From: Heptranchias perlo
Lineage: Eukaryota
Direction of reading: 5' to 3'
Assembly: GCF_035084215.1 (NCBI RefSeq)
Contig: NC_090367.1
Span: 3,038,001-3,102,000 of the forward strand
Length of the DNA stretch: 64,000 bases
Notes under the pieces: generated by a model
Seen by the model: only the letters and a program-made list of their open reading frames with translations
Database searches by the model: none
What the model was told of the DNA's origin: nothing
Position numbers and translations under genes: made by a program
In this document: positions 11,750 to 46,859 of the stretch, piece by piece
How positions within the stretch are numbered: the stretch's first letter is position 1
How the letters are laid out: each line of letters starts with the position of its first letter

Positions 11750-12082
11750 GGAGATTGCTCCAGAGTGCTGCATCAGATGAAAAAAAGCTTGTTTAACAAT
11801 GAGACTGCAATGTATGTCAGTGTATTGAATGGATTAATTGAATTTTTTTTTCAGGTCCGTATTTGGCGTTGCATTTTTTTGGCCTGTGGATGGGTTTCTG
11901 GTCGCCGTTTGATGCAACTTGGTATGTTTTTGTCGAGCCTGAGAATTTCTGATTCCCTCAGTCATCAATGTCAAAAACCTGCAGTACCTAGTCTGAATGC
12001 CAAATTGCTTCTCTCGTCTCATGGAGATTTAACACACTATCCATCACAGCCAAGATGTGATCCTATAATCAAACACAAACTG
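11750..12082 (+). other. GPR75: Probable non-coding exon 1 of the GPR75-like gene (start approximate)
   Basis: Repeat-free sequence ending in consensus donor CTG|GTAAGT (12083). A matching acceptor ttttctgattccag| precedes 22935. Human GPR75 has a non-coding first exon. An in-frame TGA at 12058-12060 excludes a coding extension. Confidence 0.5.
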
Positions 12083-13524
12083 GTAAGTATTAAGCACTTA
12101 ATTCGTTTCAGAATAAATGACCGTGCTACTAAGAAGCTGTTGTTTTATTGCAAAATGCAGTTTTGCTTCAAAAATATAAAGATCTATTGCAATAGTATAT
12201 GTTCTTCTTAGATTTTGCGACACCCATACTAAAAATGTAGTACTTTGCGTTTTAAAAAAACCTTTGTTGCAAATGGCCCTACTGAATGTTTTTTCTTTGG
12301 TTCTATTGTAAAGAAATTGTTACATGCTTACAGTGCAACACAATGTTGAACTGATTATGGGTGCTATTATGCATAATTTCCTTGAAACTTAATACTTGTG
12401 ATGCTAAAGTATTTAGGTTCAGAGCATATAATTTTTTAATACTTTATGTGTAACTGCATATGTATATATCAACCTGCAGTGCATAACTGGAGCAGAGGGA
12501 GGGAAATGTACAGGGGGGGCATTTAAAAACCATGGGTGAGAATTGCTCTGGTTGCTATGTGTAGAGACAATGAAGCTTTCCTCTCCATTATTTCTAGCAA
12601 AATTACAAATATGTTCTTTTAGAGCAGACAGTATGTAAATATTTGCAGTGCTTTCCCAAGAAAGGGACTGAAGGGCTGGTCAGGTAGGATCTTGCTTTGT
12701 GCATGATATTTCCATTTGATGAACGAAGACTACCTTACAAGATCGGCCGTCTAACTTTCTTCTTTAAGTATTACCTCATGGTCAAGATGAAACAGCTAGT
12801 CAGGACAGACCTGTCAAATTATAGGTCACCCTTGTTTGATAGGTCAAAGCAATAATGTTTAGTATAGATATGGATGGAGGTTGTTTCTAGTAGCAGTCCT
12901 GTAGATGTCTAAAGTGATTTTTTAAAAAAAAGATTAGCCTACAAAGTGGATTCAGGTTTAAATGAATGATCCTTAATCATGCCTACAGATTACTTTTCCA
13001 TTTGGAGTATTTCCTGAGGGGTGCACCTCACATCACTTTTAGCTGAAGTGATAAGGATTTCATGATATGGTTGACTTGCAGTTAATGCAAGCTATAATAG
13101 GAGAAGGAAGAGAAGCAGAACATCTTCAGGAACCCACAGCTGCTACATGCCCTTCTATTTCCCCATCTAAGAGATCCTCCCTCTTCAGAATTTGGAGTGC
13201 TCCTTTTTCATAGGGAGTGAGAGGGTGGAAATTTGGGAGTTCACCACTCTCACCTGTAATGGACTTTCTTGTCCTGAAAAAAGGGCTTTTACCTTTTATT
13301 AGCAATGCAGTTATATCTAGTTCTCAATGTGCAGGTCATTATGGATGTGCTGACATGTGCAAGCAACTAAGTACCCTGCAATGCTTTTTAGGAATTGAGA
13401 ATGTGCAAGAATGTGAGTGAAGGTACATTTGCAGGTGAAGGCTGTGGATGTAGAGTGCGCCATGCTTCATCATGAGTAATGATGGGTAGTTTAATAGATT
13501 GCATTCTTGAAAGGTGCGGCTGAC

Positions 13525-15310
13525 TACGGGATGATAAGGGTAACTTGTGTATAGAAGCAGAAGATGTGGGTAGGGTTTTAAATGGATATTTTGTCTCCTT
13601 ATTCATAAAGGAAAGGGATGATCCGGACATAGTAGTTAAAGAGGAGAGGTATGAAATATTGGATAAGGTAAACGTAACGAGAGAGGAAGTACTAGAGGGA
13701 CTGGAATCCTTGAAAGTTGATAAGTCACCAGGGCCGGATGGATTGTTTCCTAGGCTATTGAAGGAAGCCAGAGAGGAAATAGCGGATGCTCTGAGGATCA
13801 TTTTCCAATCCTCACTAGATACAGGGGAGGTACCGGAGGACTAGAAAACTGCAAACATAGTACCATTGTTTAAAAAGGGTACGAGGGAAAAGCCAAACAA
13901 TTATAGGTCGGTCAGTCTTACCTCGGTGGTGGGCAAACTATTAGAATCAATACTGAGAGATAGGATAAACTGTCACTTGGAAAGGCATGGTTTAATCAGG
14001 GATAGTCAGAATGGATTTGTTCAGGGAAGGTCATGCCTTACAAATCTGATTAAATTCTTTGAGGAAGTGACAAGGAGGATTGATGAAGGAGGATGGTTGC
14101 ATGTCCACATGCGTCCCGTGGATGTTGTCTACATGGATTTTAGTAAGGCATTTGACAAGGTCCCACATGGCACTGGTCAGAGAGGTAAAAGCCCATGGGG
14201 TACAGGGAAATGGATCCAAAATTGGCTCAGTAACAGGAAACAAAGGGTAAAAGTCGATGGATGTCTTTGCGAATGGAAATCCGTTTCCAGTGGTGTGCCA
14301 AAGGACTCAGTGTTGGGTCCCTTGCTGTTTGTGATATATATTAATGATTTGGACTTGAATGTAAGGGGCATGATTGGCAAATTTGCAGATGACACAAAAA
14401 TTGGCCGTGTAGTTGATAGTGAAGAGAATAGCTGTAGATTCCATGAAGATATCAATGGATTGGTGGAGTGGGCGGAAAAGTGGCAAATGGAGTTCAACCC
14501 GGAGGAGTGTGAGGCAATGCACTTAGGGAGGGCAAACAGTAAAAGGGAATACACAGTAAACGGGAATATATTGAGAGGGGTAGAGGAGGTGAGAGACCTT
14601 GGAGAGCATGTGCACAGGTCCCTGAAGGTGGCAGAACAGGTAGATAAGGTTGTGAAGAAGGCGTACGGAAGGCTTTCCGCTATTAGCCAAGGTATAGAAT
14701 ACAAAAGCAGGGAGGTAATGATGGAACTGTATAAAACGCTGGTAAGGCCACAGCTGGAGTATTGTGCACAGTTCTGGTCACCACATTACAGGAAGGATGT
14801 AATTGCTCTGGAGAGAGTGCAGAGAAGATTTACAAGAATGTTGCCAGGGCTTAAAAATTGCAGATACGAGGAAAGATCGGATAGGCTGGGGTTGTTTTCC
14901 TTGGAACAGAGGAGGCTGAGGAGTGACTTGATTGAAGTGTACAAAATTATGAGGGGCCCAGATAGAGTAGACAGGAAGTACCTGTTTCCCCTAGTGGAGA
15001 GTTCAAGAACTAGAGGACATAGATTTAAGCTGATTGGCGGAAGGATTAGAGGGGACATAAGGTGAAACTTTTTTATCCAGAGGGTGGTGGGTGTATGGAA
15101 TTCACTGCCCGAATTGGTGGTAGAGGCAGGGACCCTCAACTCTTTTAAAAAGTACATGGACCTGCACCTAAAGTGCTGTAAGCTGCAGGGCTACGGACCA
15201 GGTGCTGGAAGGTGGGATTAGAATGGACACCTGGTTGTTCTTCGAGCCGGCGCGGACACGATGGGCCGAACGGCCCCCTTCTGTGCTGTATCTTTTCAAT
15301 GGTTCTATGG
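13525..15310 (+). mobile_element. CR1 LINE, 5'-truncated, RT region with a premature stop
   Basis: ORFs 13545-13844 and 13866-15065 contain KSPGPDG, YMDFSKAFDKVPH, KFADDTK and the CR1 C-terminus; 3' UTR runs to about 15310. Confidence 0.95.
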
Positions 15311-22345: not shown

Positions 22346-22984
22346 AGATGCAAAATGTTCCATTTCACCAACACTAAAGTCCCTCGCCTTAAAAAGCACT
22401 TTTATTTTTAAATGGAACAGAGCAGTAGAATACAAATCTGGGCTATTGCCACGATACACCACATGGTGAGCTCCTAACCCTTCAACTCCTGAGCTGCCAT
22501 AGATGTCAAGCAGAGCTAAGTTGCTTCTTTACAGAAAAGGAGATGAGAAAAAGGACACAGGCTGTGTCAACCGGCTCTGCCTTGATTTGGCTCCCAGTAA
22601 TTGTTCATAAAAACAGTAGGAGAGCTCTCAGACCATGTTGCACTGGCACTTCAGTATGAGAATAGCACGTAGATTTGGGAGGAAGGAGATTTATGCCATA
22701 AGATGCAAAAATGTATTTATACATAAAATCTATTTGAAGGAAAATTATTTGCTACAAAATTTGCAGTTTTACAGCTTTCAAGAAGTGAACAGTTTTTCAC
22801 TTCACTGGCATCAGATATTTATACATCATAACAGACCTATCTTATCTAGTGAATAAACTATATCCTTTTGTTCCACACAGTTTATCCTCTAACCACATAA
22901 TACAAGTAGTAATATACTTTTTTTCTGATTCCAGGTCTTGCAATAAACCCGTCAAAACACTTTCAGAAACTGCTAGCGTTAAAA

Positions 22985-24601
22985 GTGAACTCCACATCAA
23001 TGGATATCCAACCATCTTTTAGAAAAGAAAAACTCCTTTTCAATATGAACACAACACCAGAATGTATTTTCCCCGTGCTCACCAACTGCTCTCCAGGAAA
23101 GAATCAAACGGAAGTCCAAGCAGCAGTCCATAGAGCTACGCTGGCCACCTGCATCCTACTGCTCATGCTGGTGTTCTGTCTGGGGTCCTATGGGAATTTA
23201 ATTGTCTTCTCCTCCTTCTTCAATCCAGCTTTCAGGAAATTTAGGACACATTTTGACTTCATGATCCTGAATCTGTCTTTTTGTGACCTCTTCATCTGCC
23301 TCATCTCAACCCCTATGTTTGGCTTTGTGATGTTTTTTGACAATGGGAACAGCTTGTCAGACACTTTCTGTTTCGCATTCCACCTCACCAGCACAGGATT
23401 TGTCATAATGTCTTTGAAAACAGTGGCTGTGATTGCTGTCCATCGTCTACGGATGGTGCTGGGACAACAAACTAACCACTCCTCCTCGTTTGTCTGTACA
23501 TTCCTTCTTACTATCATCTTGTGGGTCATTAGTTTCACCCTGGCCACCTTGTCAGCCATGACTAAATACCACAGCTCCAAGAACTGTGTCCCGCTGCTAG
23601 GACTCATCAATGAAGATGGCAAAGCCATTTTATACACTTACGTAGTGGACTTTACCCTCTGTGTCGGTATTGTTGCAATTTCTTATGCTATGATTGCTCA
23701 GACTCTGCACAAGAATGCACAGGTACGGCGCTGCCCTGTGATTACAGTGATTGACCCCAAAAAGCCCAACTGTTTTGTCCCTCCCGAAGTATCAGGACCC
23801 TCTTTATACAGAAAGCAGAAATGCAACAAAACACCCCATGTGCAGACACACATGTACACACACAATCAAAGTAAAAGTGCTACTACCTCCAATAAGAAGC
23901 TAGAACAGACTGTGAACCTTTCAGCTGTTAAAGACTCCAAAGCAGTAGTGACCTGTATTATGATACTACTGTCAGTGGTCTGCTGTCTGCCATTGGGTAT
24001 AGCTCTAGTGCATGATGTCTTATCTGCTCAGAGCAGTTTTATCATCTATCAGTTTGAGCTCTGTGGATTCACCTTGGTATTTTTTAGGTCCGGCCTCAAC
24101 CCATTTATCTATTCCCGTAACAACTCTGGTCTCCGCAAGAAGGTGGCTTGGTGCACACAGCTCATGGCCCTGCTGCTGTGCTGCAAGCAAAAAACAAGGT
24201 TGAAAGCAGTGGGGGACGGTAGCCTGGTTGTGAACAGGAACAAGTCTTCTCATCATGATACCAATTCGGCCTACATCCTCTCTCCCAAATCACAGAAAAA
24301 GCTTGTAGACCAGGCCTGCGGGCCAAGCAATTCGAAGGATGTCTTCACTTCTGTTGAGTACCAGCAAAAAGCACAGGCTGCCTCCACACCTATCAATACT
24401 AGGATAGAGCCTTACTACAGTATCTACAACAGCAGCATCTCCCAGGAGGACAGCACTCCTACCAGTTTGGAGCCCAAAAGGTACACATTTGGCTCTGCTC
24501 AGTCCTACACTGGAATGTATTACCACATCTCTAAAACATCAGACTTCATGCAGGACTGTGACAGCACTTCTGCCAAACAAATCCCCATTCCATCTGTCTA
24601 G
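22985..24601 (+). CDS. GPR75: GPR75-family orphan class A GPCR, single coding exon (first ATG 23000; ORF-track start is GTG 22985)
   Basis: 538-aa ORF with seven hydrophobic segments and GPR75-specific motifs [62 protein letters not shown] and terminal [10 protein letters not shown]. Splice acceptor precedes 22935. Confidence 0.95.
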
Positions 24602-33213: not shown

Positions 33214-33978
33214 GTAAGTGTGAAATAATTACTTATCTGGATTTTTTTTGTCCTTGGGATGTGCACAACTCTGGCAAGGCCTGTCTGTAGTTGCCCTGAG
33301 AAGCTGGTGGTGGGCCAAGTGATTGTTTTATAACTGAGTGGCTTGCTAGAGGCCTTAAGAGTCAACCACGTAGATCAGATCAGGTAGGGGTGACAGGTTC
33401 CCTTCCCTGAAGGACATCAGTGAACCAGTTGAGTTTTTATGACAATCTGTCAGCTTTCATAGTGATTTTCTTTCTGGTGCCAGCCCACAAATGCCCAGAT
33501 TTATTGAATTCATTTCACAATTTGCCACAGTGAGATGTGAACTCACGATCCCTGGGTTGCTAGTTTATTATGCATTGTGTGATGGGAGCATATGTCAGAA
33601 ATTCGAGCGGAGAAATCAGTGCACTCAATTTGGGGACCACACGATGTTACATCCATTAATTTTGATGGATCAAAAACAATGTGGGCAGCAGTCCAGCAAA
33701 TTACCTGAATTACCAAATTCCTGAAAGTCATTCCTGTCATGCAAAGTTCAGTGGCAAGAATGCTCAATCACAAAATTTACCCCCATTATCCCTCAAGCTC
33801 TTTGATGTCCAGATAGACATCTGTTTGCCTCTTGAATCTTGTATACCACCCACTGCAATGGCCTTCCCACAACTGCACCACCACCATTTTATTTTGATTA
33901 AAGAAAATTATCTTAGTAAACCCCATATATAATTCTTTTTGCAAATTATGCTATTACTTTATCTTTTTTTCTGAGCAG

Positions 33979-34171
33979 AGACTTTGGGTGTGCAGCTGAT
34001 TCACATTGCTGCAGGCTCCACCCCATTGCTGGGAAGTCTTTCCCTCTTTCCGTTCCTAACAAACTAGCAGAAGATGGAATGTGTGGAGTGCTTGAGATAT
34101 TACCAATAGCAGCTATCTGTCCTTGCCTTAAGAACTACCCCAACAAACCCACTAGAGTTTCCAGTGTATCT
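33979..34171 (+). CDS. TOP6BL: TOP6BL exon 8
   Basis: DFGCAADSHCCRLHPIAG...GVLEILPIAAICPCLKNYPNKPTRVSSVS; ends at a U12-type donor GTATCCTT. Confidence 0.88.
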
Positions 34172-34871
34172 GTATCCTTAACTGAAAGGGTATACAACAT
34201 GTGTGGGTATAAATGGGAGATGAGTTTCTCTGCTGAAGTACATACTTGTGACATGCTTCTATTAGTGTGCAATGTCCACTATATGTTATGATGGCAATGG
34301 GGGTAGATATGATCAAGCATGAGCTTTTGCACTAGCACTGGGGAAGGGTGAATCGATGTTCATTTCCTCATGAACACCAAGCAGAAGTTGGCTTTGCTTG
34401 AACAGTTTGGCATTCTGGCACTTGAACTGTGCCTTCCTTGTGAGTTTCCCTGAAATTACTATTTTCAGCAGCTCCCACTGAATTACAAAGGCATGTAAAT
34501 GAGTACCACATTAATATGAAAATTAGGATAGAATGCTGCAAATACCACTGAAACTATCATTTTGTGCTATCATAAAAGAGTTTGAACATTTTACACAACT
34601 ATGGATATTAACGGCAGTTATGGGTCAGGTGAACACCATGTTTGTGATTTAGCCATTGGATCATGGAGTAGCAGTGGTAAAGGACTATAACCTTAGTATA
34701 TAATTTTACATTTTGTGCTATTTACTATGAATGGTACGTAGTGTAGGGAAAATGATAGATAATGACATGCTGTGGATCTAGCAAATAGTTTCTACAGGTC
34801 TGTAAGAGAGGGAGGTGTATGTAGAGTTTTGATATTTGATAATAACTACAGCACTCCTTGACTTGACACAT
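34172..34871 (+). other. U12 (minor spliceosome) intron with GT-AT termini, TOP6BL intron 8
   Basis: 5' GTATCCTTA; branch site TCCTTGAC at 34855-34862; the frame-preserving, alignment-consistent acceptor 10 nt after the branch A is AT (34870-34871). Confidence 0.72.
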
Positions 34872-35019
34872 GTATTTATATATGGACCAGCTGACTTGCC
34901 TATATTGTTCAAGGATAGTAAAAATTCCTTGTCTTTCTTCATGGATCCGTCCCATCTAGCAGACTGGAAGCAATACGAACAATATCTGACTCAAAATACA
35001 GACCAAAAGACGGTAGAAG
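34872..35019 (+). CDS. TOP6BL: TOP6BL exon 9 (3' end at 35019 via a GA donor, or 35058 via a GT donor)
   Basis: VFIYGPADLPILFKDSKNSLSFFMDPSHLADWKQY versus recalled human IFLYGPLGLPLI...FFKDTSSLVDWKKY. Confidence 0.85.
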
Positions 35020-37876
35020 GAAAGTTTTTATATTGTTTACTTATTTGTTTAGTCAAAGGTGATACATTATGGTGGTTAAAGTATTGTTTATATGAGCTGC
35101 GTGGATTCTGTGAAATTTCCTTATTTGAGTTGAGGTGATTTTCTGTCACAAAACATGCAAAGTGGATAACATAGGTACAAAATCTTTCCCTTCCCACTGG
35201 GGCAGCCAAGGCACTGTGACATGGACACAAACACTAATATTACAGTAATAAAGATACTCAGAACCCTCATAATAAAAGAGACGGTAAGTCTACAGGGTTC
35301 ATACTTACCAACAGAGCAGCTGTCTAGTTATATTTTTCCAACTTTAATCATTTTCTTTGCTCTTTTCCACCAAGTTCTCCTCAACCCTCCTACTCTCCCG
35401 AAGGTGTTTTCCCCTTGCTGGGATATGGCTCCATCGGCACCCCCACCTTGCCCAAATGGCCATTCATCATCTATTACAGTGAATGTTGGACTGTTTGAGG
35501 GCTATCATGTCTAAGAATGATCCTATGCGGAACTAATCTACACATGTGCATTTCCAGCAGGGCGTCGTTAGGGAGTGATTAGGGGCAGAAATCTGGGTGA
35601 TCTTTCTCCTTCCCTCCCCCAGGAGCATTGAGGCTAATTGTAGCACCCCATTTGCTGCCAGGGCTGAAATCAGCTGACTGCACAGACCAGGGATCAAATT
35701 TGTGATGTTCCTGATCTGTATAGCTCAGTTACTCAAACAGCTAAGACAATGAGGGAGTTTTAAAAAAATCTTAAACATAAGGCACACCTCGTGTAACCTG
35801 CATTGCACTAAGAGAGTTTACAGTTTCTCTGAGGTCTAATTGTGAGTAAGCTGTCATTTTTCTCAGTCTCCACTGAATTTTTGTAAACATTTGGCAGAGA
35901 CAGAAGAAAAAAAACTAGAAGGTGCTGTGTGAGTATTTAACAGTAACAGTGGTCATTCATTGAGTTACCTTCTTTATTATCTGCACAGTAGGGAAACATT
36001 CCAGTCAATCTGTCTGTATGTTCATTTGTGACTATTTTTGCTTTATGTATAAAGTCCTTGAAATACCAACCTCATTTTTGTAGAGACTGGAGAAATAGCA
36101 GTGAAAAATACCCCAGGCTTAATTATAATTAGTGTAATTAGCATTAAAACCTCTGCCCTGCAGCTACATATCTGGCCACATAATAAGGATTCCAATTACT
36201 AGTTTGAAAAAAAATCCACACTGACAAAAATTCTTGAACTTTTTTAAATGAAATAAACAGAAGTAAAAGTACTGTCCACAGACTCAAAAGAAAGTAACCT
36301 TTTGAATATCTTATGCTCCTTTGAGAGATTTTCATCTTGAATGCTCAGTGGGTAGACTGCATGGGACTGACACACAACCTACACAATGAGCATTTATCCA
36401 ACAGACAAACAATTGAGGTGAATTATGCTGTGCAATATTAGTTTATAAGCATTTAATACCTTCATGTGAAACACCTTTGTCTGGAATTTCAATATTTGGA
36501 GGACATGGAACAGCCTGTCAGCCTATTAATCAGCCTGCAAATCCTTCCACAACTTCACACTGTTCTCCAAGGGAAGAGTGTGAAGGTATGAAAACAACAT
36601 TTGGGTTAATAACTCAGTTAAAATAATCGACAAAGGAATATCAGTATAATTTTCAACCCAAATGTCATGATTATTTTAACATTTTAGACAAAAACAGCCA
36701 CAAAGAATGTAACTCCATGTGAATTTAGACATTATCATTAATGCTAATTTTTGGTTCAACATTGAGAGCAGGAATTTTTAAACCCCTAAACAAAAATGGT
36801 TTTGCTAAAAATTGTAAAGCCCAAATTTGGCCACAATGAAAAGGAAAAAGTGTAACATGCTGGAGAGCTCAAGGCAGTATGAAGTTTAAACCACTGTATT
36901 TTATGTTTTGCTGCAATAGCTAGCCCATATTTTACATAAGGAATCTCTCGTATTGTTGCTCACGGTTAGTCAGGGTGAGAAGAGGCCAGGGAATGGATGA
37001 AGAGCAAAGTAGGGTTAAGCAATGGGGTGTAGGAGAGGTTCGCGAGTAGGTGAGTAGCGCAGTAGGTGGCAGGCAGGAGAGGCTAACAAAACAGCCTAAG
37101 AGTGGTTACAGCACTCTGGAGCAAGTAAGAGTAACAGGTGTAACTGTTACCATTGCAGTGTTGCCCACTGATTTCAAAAGTCTTACTGGGGCATTACAGA
37201 GTTACCAATTCAAAGATTTTAATTATATATAACATTATCTGGGTTTATTCAAATCTGGTTGCAATTCACGCTGTACTTACTTTCTTACAGATGCCAATCA
37301 TGTTGTATGAATTGTGTTGCAATGTTAAACTGAACCATCACATTATATGAATTTGTATAAGTTTAACCTGTCCATATGAACTGTATATATTTCTACACTG
37401 TTGCAGGTAAAGCTTGCCCTGAAAGAGTTTCCCTGATGACTCACTGAGTAAATTTGCCATATGTGTAGTGCTAAGCCACAGGATAGAAGGTCCTGGATTC
37501 ATTTCCAGACTGTGCTGAGTTAGCTGACCTCAACTTAGGAAGACGTTGGTGCACCACAATTGCTCTCAATGCCCCTGGTCAATGGAGGGGAACACTGAGC
37601 CAGGGTTCCCACTCCTAATCACTATCCAGTAACCTATGCTGGAGTGTGTGTGCGTTTGGTGAAGATAGGATCCAGCTCAAGTGTGATGTACTGTATGGTC
37701 AAAATCCTGCTAGATTCACACATGAAAAATGGCCAGTTCAGTGAAGTACCAGAGGACTGCTGGCACCACTGGAACTGTACCTCAGTAAAAGCCAACATCT
37801 GCAGGAGAGGGGGAAACAAATCAGAAAACAAATTTTAAAAGCCAATTACACTGTATACATTTGTGTTGTGTTACAG

Positions 37877-38026
37877 GATTAGCCTGTGCTGATATCAGTT
37901 ACACTGTTCAATCAATACTGGAAGATGACTGGTCTGAATGCGGCGAAGCCCAGGAGCAGATGGTGCTTCTCTTTCTTTTTATTAAATACTGGGATGAATT
38001 TCACTTGTCGCTGATGGATGTAATAG
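37877..38026 (+). CDS. TOP6BL: TOP6BL exon 10
   Basis: ttacag|GLACADISYTVQS...QEQMVLLFLFIKYWDEF...DVI|gtaatt; phases 1/1. Confidence 0.9.
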
Positions 38027-42085: not shown

Positions 42086-42500
42086 GTATGTTCTTAAATA
42101 ACTTGAGAGTTGATGATGACTGAATGATTTAGAATACTTGCTTTGCTGGATGCTTCCTGGATGTGATTGACTTTAATATAATGTGGTTCATTTTCTGTAT
42201 TTCACGATCCTTAATGAACTGGATAAACTACTCCAAAGTGATATTCTGTGACATTGTATGTATTATATGAATAAACGGAAGGGGTAATGCATGATCCTGA
42301 GAAAGCCAACAGTTTCTGTAACATTATATGTACATTTTATTCACTATTCATGCTTTATATCCTTCAGAAAAAAGTGGTTGGGGCACCCATTATTCCCCAC
42401 AAGGTAAATTCTCAATCTTACTTGGGCCATTAGGGTTGATGTTCTGATTGACGTCAAGTGATCTAGATGCACAGGATTAACATTGGTTGTCTTTTGACAG

Positions 42501-42633
42501 AAGATTCATTCAGGAGATGTTGGCCGTGTGCATTGTAACAGTGATTCAGCTAACCCAGAGACCAGCCAAGAGAATTTGCATGACATAGACTACTTCCAGA
42601 GGATCTATACAGAGCTTGCAGATCCCGAGTTAG
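42501..42633 (+). CDS. TOP6BL: TOP6BL exon 14
   Basis: cttttgacag|KIHSGDVGRVHCNSDSANPETSQE...ADPEL|gtacaa; phases 0/1 fit the neighbours; poorly conserved region. Confidence 0.7.
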
Positions 42634-45385: not shown

Positions 45386-45762
45386 ACCCATCACTCAGAC
45401 CAGTGGATTCGGACATTCTATGTTGCAGTGATGGATCTCCACATATAACATCAGAAACTGCTTTCAGTTTTGGCAGCACTAAACAAAGAATGGACACTGG
45501 CAAAAGAAGGCTGGAAGCATGCAGAATGAAGCCCTGTGTGGATCAGTACAGTCAACCTTTCAAAAAAACAATGATTGGAGCATACAACCATCCAACTATG
45601 GAAAATATTAGCACCGACCATATCTCCTTGCTGAAAAATGATATACAGGTTTCAGCAACTGTCCCTGCAAGATCAGCATCTGAGACAACTGGCCATTTGG
45701 AGGTGCAGTGCAGTATAATGCACACTAAGCAAACGATCAATAGAAAACCAACAGAAGATCAG
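45386..45762 (+). CDS. TOP6BL: TOP6BL exon 15 (low-conservation linker)
   Basis: ttttgcag|DPSLRPVDSD...RKPTEDQ|gtttgt lies within ORF 45298-45843; phases 1/0 fit. Confidence 0.75.
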
Positions 45763-46632
45763 GTTTGTGACTATGTACAGAATTGGTATACTAGTTTATT
45801 TTTGTGGAAATTCTATATATTTTTTGCTGAACTAGGTGTCTGACAAACATGGAAATGCATCACTATATTTATGGTACTAGACTAGTAACCCAGAGGTTGA
45901 GTTCAAATCCCATCATGGCAAGTTCTGAAATTCAAATCAATAAATCTGGTAATTTGTGGGCTAGCACCAGAACAAAATGACCAGGAAAGCTGTCAGACTG
46001 TTATAGAAGTCCAACTGGTTCATTAATATTCTGCAGAGAAAGGAACCTGCCATCCCTACCTGGTATAGCCTGCACATGACTTGCCTATGGTTGACTTTTA
46101 ATGACCTCTAAAATGGCCTAGTTGTAAAAGCAGTTGCTACGAAGGCCCACTACCTTCTTGTGGCAACTAGGGAAGGACAATAAACATGGCTTCACCAGCG
46201 TCACCCACGTCTTGAAAACAAGCAACAAAGAAGTAACCACAGATTTTAGACACATGGCTGATAGGAGCCAAGATTTAGGCACTCCCATGTGTGTAGGGCT
46301 ACAGCTGGAATTTAATTGGCTAAAATCACATAGCTTACAAGCACAGAATAATTCCTGCTGATTGCCCAGCAAAGACCACCTACCCATTGGGGCACTACCT
46401 TATTGGAGCCAAATTCCCCACTGCCTCAGTGACACGTTTATGAAAATAATCTTACTTCTCTTTTATGAACTGGCGATATTAAGGCTTGAACAACTAATAG
46501 AATAAGCATGGCTTAACTTTATTCTATGGCAGGAAAGCAGAATATTAAACGTTTTTTATTAGTGATTTGGAGATTGTAGATTGGTCTTTTTGATTATGAT
46601 GACGACAATAATATTTTCATGTTCGTGTGCAG

Positions 46633-46828: not shown

Positions 46829-46859
46829 AATAAAGCAAAAGGGCAAATTATAAAATAAA
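46829..46859 (+). terminator. TOP6BL polyadenylation signals
   Basis: AATAAA at 46829 and 46854, followed by a GT-rich tract (gttgtttgtgt). Confidence 0.65.

Follow-up and report, generated by a model that had tools for sequence, protein, structure and literature searches.

The question raised by this locus is how the ninth intron of TOP6BL is removed when its 5' splice site reads GA in place of GT. The DNA analysed (the window) is a stretch of 64,000 nucleotides of Heptranchias perlo (contig NC_090367.1, positions 3,038,001 to 3,102,000 of the forward strand), and all the TOP6BL features described here lie on its + strand. An earlier note, made from the sequence alone, had left two readings side by side, a very rare GA-AG intron or a lost donor rescued by a cryptic one. 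The first is supported by RNA of a relative, by DNA contigs and by the split gene models of other species, while the second finds no counterpart in the relative's contig. TOP6BL intron 9 is a GA-AG intron, which is very probably removed exactly at the GA by the major spliceosome as the only route to the full-length protein, and which sharks and rays likely owe to their common ancestor. What is new is a GA-AG intron in TOP6BL, within the already known class of U2-type GA-AG introns. No report of a TOP6BL GA donor was found in the literature searched, which lay outside subscription papers and was mostly judged by title.

Sequence, frame and joint of intron 9

Intron 9 occupies positions 35020 to 37876 (2857 nt) and reads AAG/GAAAGT...TTACAG/ in the H. 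perlo sequence, the slashes marking the splice boundaries. It is preceded by exon 9 (34872 to 35019, 148 nt), which carries the W-K-x-Y motif, and followed by exon 10 (37877 to 38026, 150 nt), both exons being placed by homology and by the X5 contig described below. The 5' splice site, AAG/GAAAGTTT (35017 to 35027), has G at 35020 and A at 35021 and forms 8 of 11 Watson-Crick pairs with the 5' end of U1, with a mismatch at +2. The acceptor AG is at 37875 to 37876. The donor had been read in the earlier note as GAAG/GAAAGT at 35020 in phase 1, and exon 10 had been claimed to need a phase-1 donor; the former is confirmed by the sequence and the frame of exon 9, and the latter by the frame of exon 10.

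Outside position +2 the donor agrees with the U2 consensus, and the genomic ends of the intron are GA and AG. The acceptor is U2-type without a U12 branch motif; neither an RTATCCTT donor nor a TCCTTRAC branch site is present in the intron, which therefore is not of the U12 type. The frame joined at the GA stays open for 461 aa, from exon 8 (33979 to 34171; tblastn of P0006 at 82%, and X5 contig over 33979 to 34170) to the stop. Exon 9 is single-copy in the H. perlo genome (G000), and exons 10 to 16 are 100% identical, splice-edge residues aside, to the NCBI DUF4554/TOP6BL model P0002 of the same species.

The motif AAGGAAAGT is found three times in the window, both strands included, and is thus by itself not rare. 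The site is more than a chance match because of its position: the junction spacing matches that of homologues, and the relative's RNA ends exon 9 there. Of the 64 mammal proteins examined, 59 are scorable and 57 of these have the same spacing, which is also present in the model of the small-spotted catshark (S. canicula) and in 34 of the 47 scorable representatives (104 examined). Shifting the exon 9-10 junction anywhere from -2 to +2 leaves the mRNA unchanged, and, with 13 shifts scored, a G..AG intron results only at shift 0. A slide to canonical intron ends was rejected, since none of the 13 shifts gives a canonical pair, and so was a canonical micro-exon rescue of the intron (0 of 6 combinations found).

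The earlier note had also asked for a check of the genomic data at 35021. In the DNA-run contigs X1, X2 and X4, the base is A; the letters over 35020 to 35024 are the same throughout, with no alternative at 35021. These are Logan contigs of one sample, from which the assembly itself may have been made; X1 and X2 resemble one data set. They rule out an assembly error at 35021 for this single sample. RNA editing of the GA was rejected by reasoning, because A-to-I editing would yield GG, not GT. Directly downstream, the T run at 35025 to 35029 differs in length by 2 nt between runs of the sample, X1 and X2 being short by two T at 35025 and X4 having the assembled length. This difference appears to be a heterozygous indel, of which each contig keeps one allele. 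The GA donor is present on both forms.

The joint itself was found in X5, which is one contig from one run of a close relative, with exons about 95-98% identical to those of H. perlo and with a guessed 'RNA' label. It joins 35019 to 37877 exactly and runs to the last exon. The contig (1291 nt) covers 34871 to 35021, its loose end being exon 10 after the shared GA, ends at 46844, and carries differences in exons 10, 11, 13, 14 and 15. Its inner length of 607 equals that of plain splicing (with exon 14 entered at 42504), while a 39-nt extension of exon 9 predicts 646. Of the two junction ends between which the earlier note wished to decide, 35019 and 35058, the relative's contig therefore gives the first, without the extension. 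It should be noted that the GA is read in the DNA of H. perlo and the junction in the RNA of the X5 relative, so that two organisms are involved and no single one gives both. The H. perlo runs X6 to X8, possibly RNA, have no cover over 33902 to 35035 and say nothing on expression. X5 has no contig over 35022 to 35190, though it has unspliced contigs within intron 8, and contigs give no levels.

Other features of the gene and its surroundings were also observed. Exon 14 has a tandem acceptor (42499 to 42504), at which the H. perlo model uses 42501, and the length of X5 agrees with entry at 42504. An in-frame alternative donor of exon 15 is seen within 45702 to 45763, where X5 splices out at the GT at 45703, which lies 60 nt upstream of the donor that X6 uses. 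A 12-residue cassette is present at about 42367 to 42400 in isoforms P0076 and P0077, and where it begins it overlaps a U12-like donor motif (42357). Upstream of TOP6BL, positions 22913 to 24598 hold an intronless frame of 562 codons for a rhodopsin-family receptor (PF00001), which we take to be GPR75-like, and the long open frames at 13845 to 15062 and 52186 to 53967 presumably belong to LINE reverse transcriptases. The zebra-shark model P0078, which joins an exon matching 11975 to 12091 to TOP6BL exon 10, is either a chimeric model or a read-through transcript. Metagenome matches to exon 9 (two loci, 48% over 21 residues) were judged spurious, and no solved structure matched the TOP6BL model P0006.

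Age of the site among elasmobranchs

The earlier note had proposed a look at the same donor in other sharks and rays, and the models of three distant species are split exactly at intron 9, with the +2 letter itself unseen in protein. P0187 (Pristiophorus japonicus), P0188 (Scyliorhinus torazame) and P0189 (Narcine bancroftii) span intron 8 and contain exon 9, then run past its donor to a stop. Their partner models P0001, P0005 and P0009 start with exon 10, and two of the three read into it from the last part of intron 9 over an AG-compatible acceptor. In the split models the Pfam DUF4554 profile breaks at 178/181.

The residues read through, G-K-F or G-K-W, fix +1 as G, +3 and +4 as A, +5 as a purine and +6 as T (G-N-A-A-R-T). 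The +2 letter is hidden in these species because it is the wobble position of the Gly codon, and GG fits as well as GA. A T or C at +2 would give a near-consensus donor, which is unlikely to have been missed by three independent annotations that each recognized the exons on either side. From this we infer that the donor is neither GT nor GC, and most simply GA, in all three species, which represent squalomorphs, galeomorphs and batoids. It is probable, on the evidence of these protein models, that such a donor is elasmobranch-wide and predates the split between sharks and rays.

Of 64 mammal proteins, 57 have exon 9 joined to exon 10; among 12 elasmobranch species the join is present in one, S. 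canicula only (21 models, among the matches listed in word-based protein searches). Most of the other elasmobranch species carry less weight, since a break at intron 8 could also account for their models. In S. canicula the model P0006 joins the two exons correctly, and its residue at the intron-8 junction is Ser; X5 implies the same residue, and Tyr stands there in the three split models. There may be a GT donor in S. canicula, or the model may have been built on a full-length transcript.

The S. canicula model is one of the points in favour of a different reading, in which the GA is a recent damaging change in this individual or species, its relatives have GT, and little or no full-length mRNA is made. 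The DNA evidence, moreover, comes from one sample only, and the genomic donor of the X5 relative is unseen. This reading is nevertheless very unlikely, considering that the GA is on both indel forms with the TOP6BL frame intact, that three distant species are split at the same intron, and that TOP6BL is required in mammals for meiotic breaks and fertility. The GA donor looks not to be a private loss and appears old.

The GA donor would account for the splitting of TOP6BL, a fertility gene, into two public models. As the gene looks split or truncated in 11 of the 12 elasmobranch species (among the matches listed), it may be misread as gene decay in studies of meiosis. Outside the elasmobranchs, the paddlefish model likewise begins with a read-in at exon 10, a Chinese sturgeon model ends shortly past exon 9, and exon 9 is extended with G-K in models of anchovy and wall lizard (among P0115, P0144, P0098 and P0102). 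The intron-9 donor of TOP6BL may be atypical in some bony vertebrates too, to judge from such models.

Neighbouring GT sites, intron 8 and the splicing route

Several GT dinucleotides surround the GA donor. The nearest upstream (35013 to 35014) lies 7 nt from it in a Val codon, and the nearest downstream (35024 to 35025) is at +5/+6. Both had been called out of phase in the earlier note, and they are, the first being in phase 0 and the second in phase 2. Use of the 35013 GT would shift the frame, with a computed stop directly after the junction. Val at this position is found in 5 of 5 elasmobranch exon-9 sequences, which are not independent, versus 1 of 34 other homologues, and the GT may be a helper site for U1. 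The GT at +5 is a possible leak site.

The GT at 35059 to 35060 is in phase 1, pairs with U1 by 5 Watson-Crick pairs and 1 wobble, and adds 39 nt. The claim that it would add 13 residues in phase therefore stands. Two further phase-1 GTs, at 35035 and 35047, had been overlooked; they have poor U1 pairing and a stop at the junction. The two alleles at 35025 differ with respect to this site. With the shorter allele, the distance to the 35059 GT is 37 nt and the frame is lost, and the only in-frame GT there has 3 U1 pairs and 2 wobbles. The read-through tail of the sawshark matches the shorter allele in 9 of 13 residues and the assembled allele in 4 of 13; for the electric ray these matches are 7 and 1 of 13, and in both species the stop is at the position of the shorter allele's. 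The tail of the cloudy catshark differs in register and matches either allele in 3 of 15. Because the sawshark and electric-ray tails are in the register of the shorter allele, the ancestral allele is likely this one, and 35059 likely came into frame by a recent accident.

These tails may also be taken to mean that the GA site is minor, that most transcripts retain or end in intron 9 and encode a truncated N-terminal protein, and that the split models are real short transcripts. The three models stop 13-15 residues into intron 9, two of them at the shorter allele's stop position, and AATAAA is present in the intron at 35247 and 35271, the first inside a multi-copy stretch. Such an account has a very low probability. 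The X5 contig is fully spliced from exon 9 to exon 16, the cloudy catshark tail is in a register of its own, and a failure of annotation at a non-canonical intron accounts for the split without any short product.

It is highly improbable, too, that the donor was lost in the H. perlo lineage and that the 35059 GT rescues splicing with a 13-residue insertion. In favour of such a rescue, 35059 is a true GT with the above pairing to U1 and is in frame on the assembled allele, and 7-9 additional residues occur at the exon 9-10 join in a few other vertebrate models. The 39-nt extension, however, is absent from the X5 contig; the GT is out of frame on the allele of X1 and X2, whose register the sawshark and electric ray share; and the public models of H. 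perlo begin inside exon 10 despite an in-frame Met in exon 9. The rescue suggested in the earlier note is thus not upheld, and 35059 was rejected as the main route on the grounds of contigs, pairing and allele register. The GA is likely the sole productive donor: no in-frame canonical donor works on both alleles.

With regard to how this donor is recognized, the GA site pairs with U1 better than the 35059 GT does (8 of 11 versus 5 plus 1 wobble), and its pairing is equalled only by the exon-7 GT donor among the sites scored against the consensus as generally known. The other nine U2 donors among TOP6BL introns 5 to 15 are GT. Ordinary U1 would bind the GA site through the remaining positions. 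In general, AG at the exon end favours U5, and AGT at +4 to +6 favours U6. The exonic AG at -2/-1 and the AGT at +4 to +6 of this site should suit them, so that both of these mutually substituting helper contacts would be present. The GT 7 nt upstream, together with the conserved U-rich stretch downstream, may aid recruitment of U1, as reported for FGFR. This stretch (35026 to 35059, 56% T) is a candidate intronic enhancer; the U-rich start of intron 9 has the highest T share of 11 TOP6BL introns, and its register is kept in the sawshark and electric ray.

If the GT at -7 or +5 were used, the shift of frame would lead to nonsense-mediated decay of the mRNA. Both would give a frameshift and an early stop, and leak products are therefore expected to decay. 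According to the relevant passages of PMC6280755, GA sites in human fibroblasts are seen solely within clusters, as the site of lower use, and TIA1 sites placed downstream in reporters activate the +5 position as well as the GA. It follows that an obligatory GA site should leak, which counts against a clean picture.

A U1 snRNA variant whose position 7 carries a compensating base, as suggested for the copepod Eurytemora in a passage of PMC7072748, almost certainly does not read the GA site, since none of the 404 U1 5'-end matches in G000 (exact 18-letter context) differs at position 7 and no A7 variant is among them. The 404 matches genome-wide include a tandem array with a period of about 3.5 kb (G000:C12:67535637-67654793).

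On the other side of exon 9, intron 8 (34172 to 34871) is a U12-type GT..AT intron, assigned by its sequence and the X5 joint, with both a U12 donor, GTATCCTT, and a U12 branch-site motif at 34855. X5 joins 34170 to 34871 with an ambiguity of 5 letters, and the same acceptor letters stand in an X5 contig that is unspliced (34674 to 34900), with no difference at 34850 to 34871. Exon 9 is thus bounded by non-canonical sites on both sides, as the earlier note had it, with this intron, joined in X5, on one side and the GA donor on the other. The Tyr for Ser at the intron-8 junction of the three split models would result from a shift of 4 nt that forces AT-AC ends, and the odd GT..AT end of intron 8 may, as the sequences suggest, be shared among elasmobranchs. 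The first ~70 nt of the intron (34172 to 34240) translate in register with the read-through tails of skate and bamboo-shark models (P0089, P0092), by which measure the start of intron 8 is apparently conserved too.

These features, in which the earlier note saw a possible splicing-level brake on expression, might be combined into a conserved elasmobranch splicing switch on meiotic breaks, in which the U12 intron, the obligatory GA and the GT decoys at -7 and +5 would default the mRNA to decay or truncation, and full-length protein would arise only where germ-cell splicing factors on the U-rich element favour the GA. Such a role for exon 9 is doubtful.

Comparison with known GA-AG introns

A U2-type GA-AG intron is known in FGFR1-3 (Twigg 1998 and Brackenridge 2003, as cited in the relevant passages of PMC4176328, PMC6280755 and PMC2423196). 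Its GA site is reported as spliced in human (PMC4176328, in part), and use of the site is described in passages of PMC4176328, PMC2423196 and PMC6280755 as dependent on an upstream GT and two intronic elements. In the H. perlo genome, three FGFR genes (L032, L035 and L036) have the same GAAAGT core, six bases after a GT (GT-N4-GA). The fragments were identified by PDB matches, weakly for L032 (E 0.006), a Pfam search having given no recognition of the three. The FGFR pattern search of G000 gave 7 matches, of which 4 are not FGFR frames, and the control pattern gave 3.

TOP6BL and FGFR have in common the GA donor, the AG acceptor, GAAAGT at +1 to +6, a GT just upstream, and conserved downstream intronic sequence. 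They differ in that the FGFR GT is 6 nt upstream, with both sites in frame and the GA an alternative, whereas the TOP6BL GT is 7 nt upstream and leads to a stop, the GA being the only productive site. The exonic -2/-1 letters are AG in TOP6BL and CA in FGFR. The TOP6BL site does not belong to the FGFR tandem subtype, because its spacing and frame are different. It fits the broader U2-type GA-AG class by its sequence and, by analogy, would work like the FGFR GA site.

Further human GA-AG introns are those of ITPR1, MYO18B, CAGE1 and DPY19L1 (PMC4176328 supplement, among 30 of its 62 GAAG rows), and that of ITPR1 also appears in a passage of 10.64898/2026.06.30.735536. They share with the TOP6BL intron a U2-like consensus except at +2, and are a known cause of mis-annotation. 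C11orf80/TOP6BL has no match in the PMC4176328 supplement, so the human gene is not listed there as non-canonical, and the site appears specific to cartilaginous fishes. TOP6BL, C11orf80 and Gm960 have no match in the supplement of PMC11347168. Mouse Top6bl is described as a minor-intron gene that is mis-spliced on loss of U11 (PMC12956336, a passage silent on any GA donor); mouse and shark genes thus both carry a U12 intron, here intron 8.

In Eurytemora affinis, as in Oikopleura dioica, GA donors run to thousands genome-wide and lie in an AG/GAA context (PMC7072748, in part), which is also that of the TOP6BL donor. Unlike those copepod and tunicate genomes, H. perlo has an unchanged U1, and the nine other U2 donors of TOP6BL are GT (the donors examined being those of TOP6BL and FGFR).

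In vertebrates GA donors are rare, and most of them are secondary to an adjacent GT, whereas that of TOP6BL would be the sole productive site. The shark-ray span is about 250-300 million years. A sole GA donor, apparently kept across sharks and rays, provides a natural test of how the major spliceosome passes an A at +2, and its 7-nt spacing tests the generality of the 'helper GT' mechanism of FGFR.
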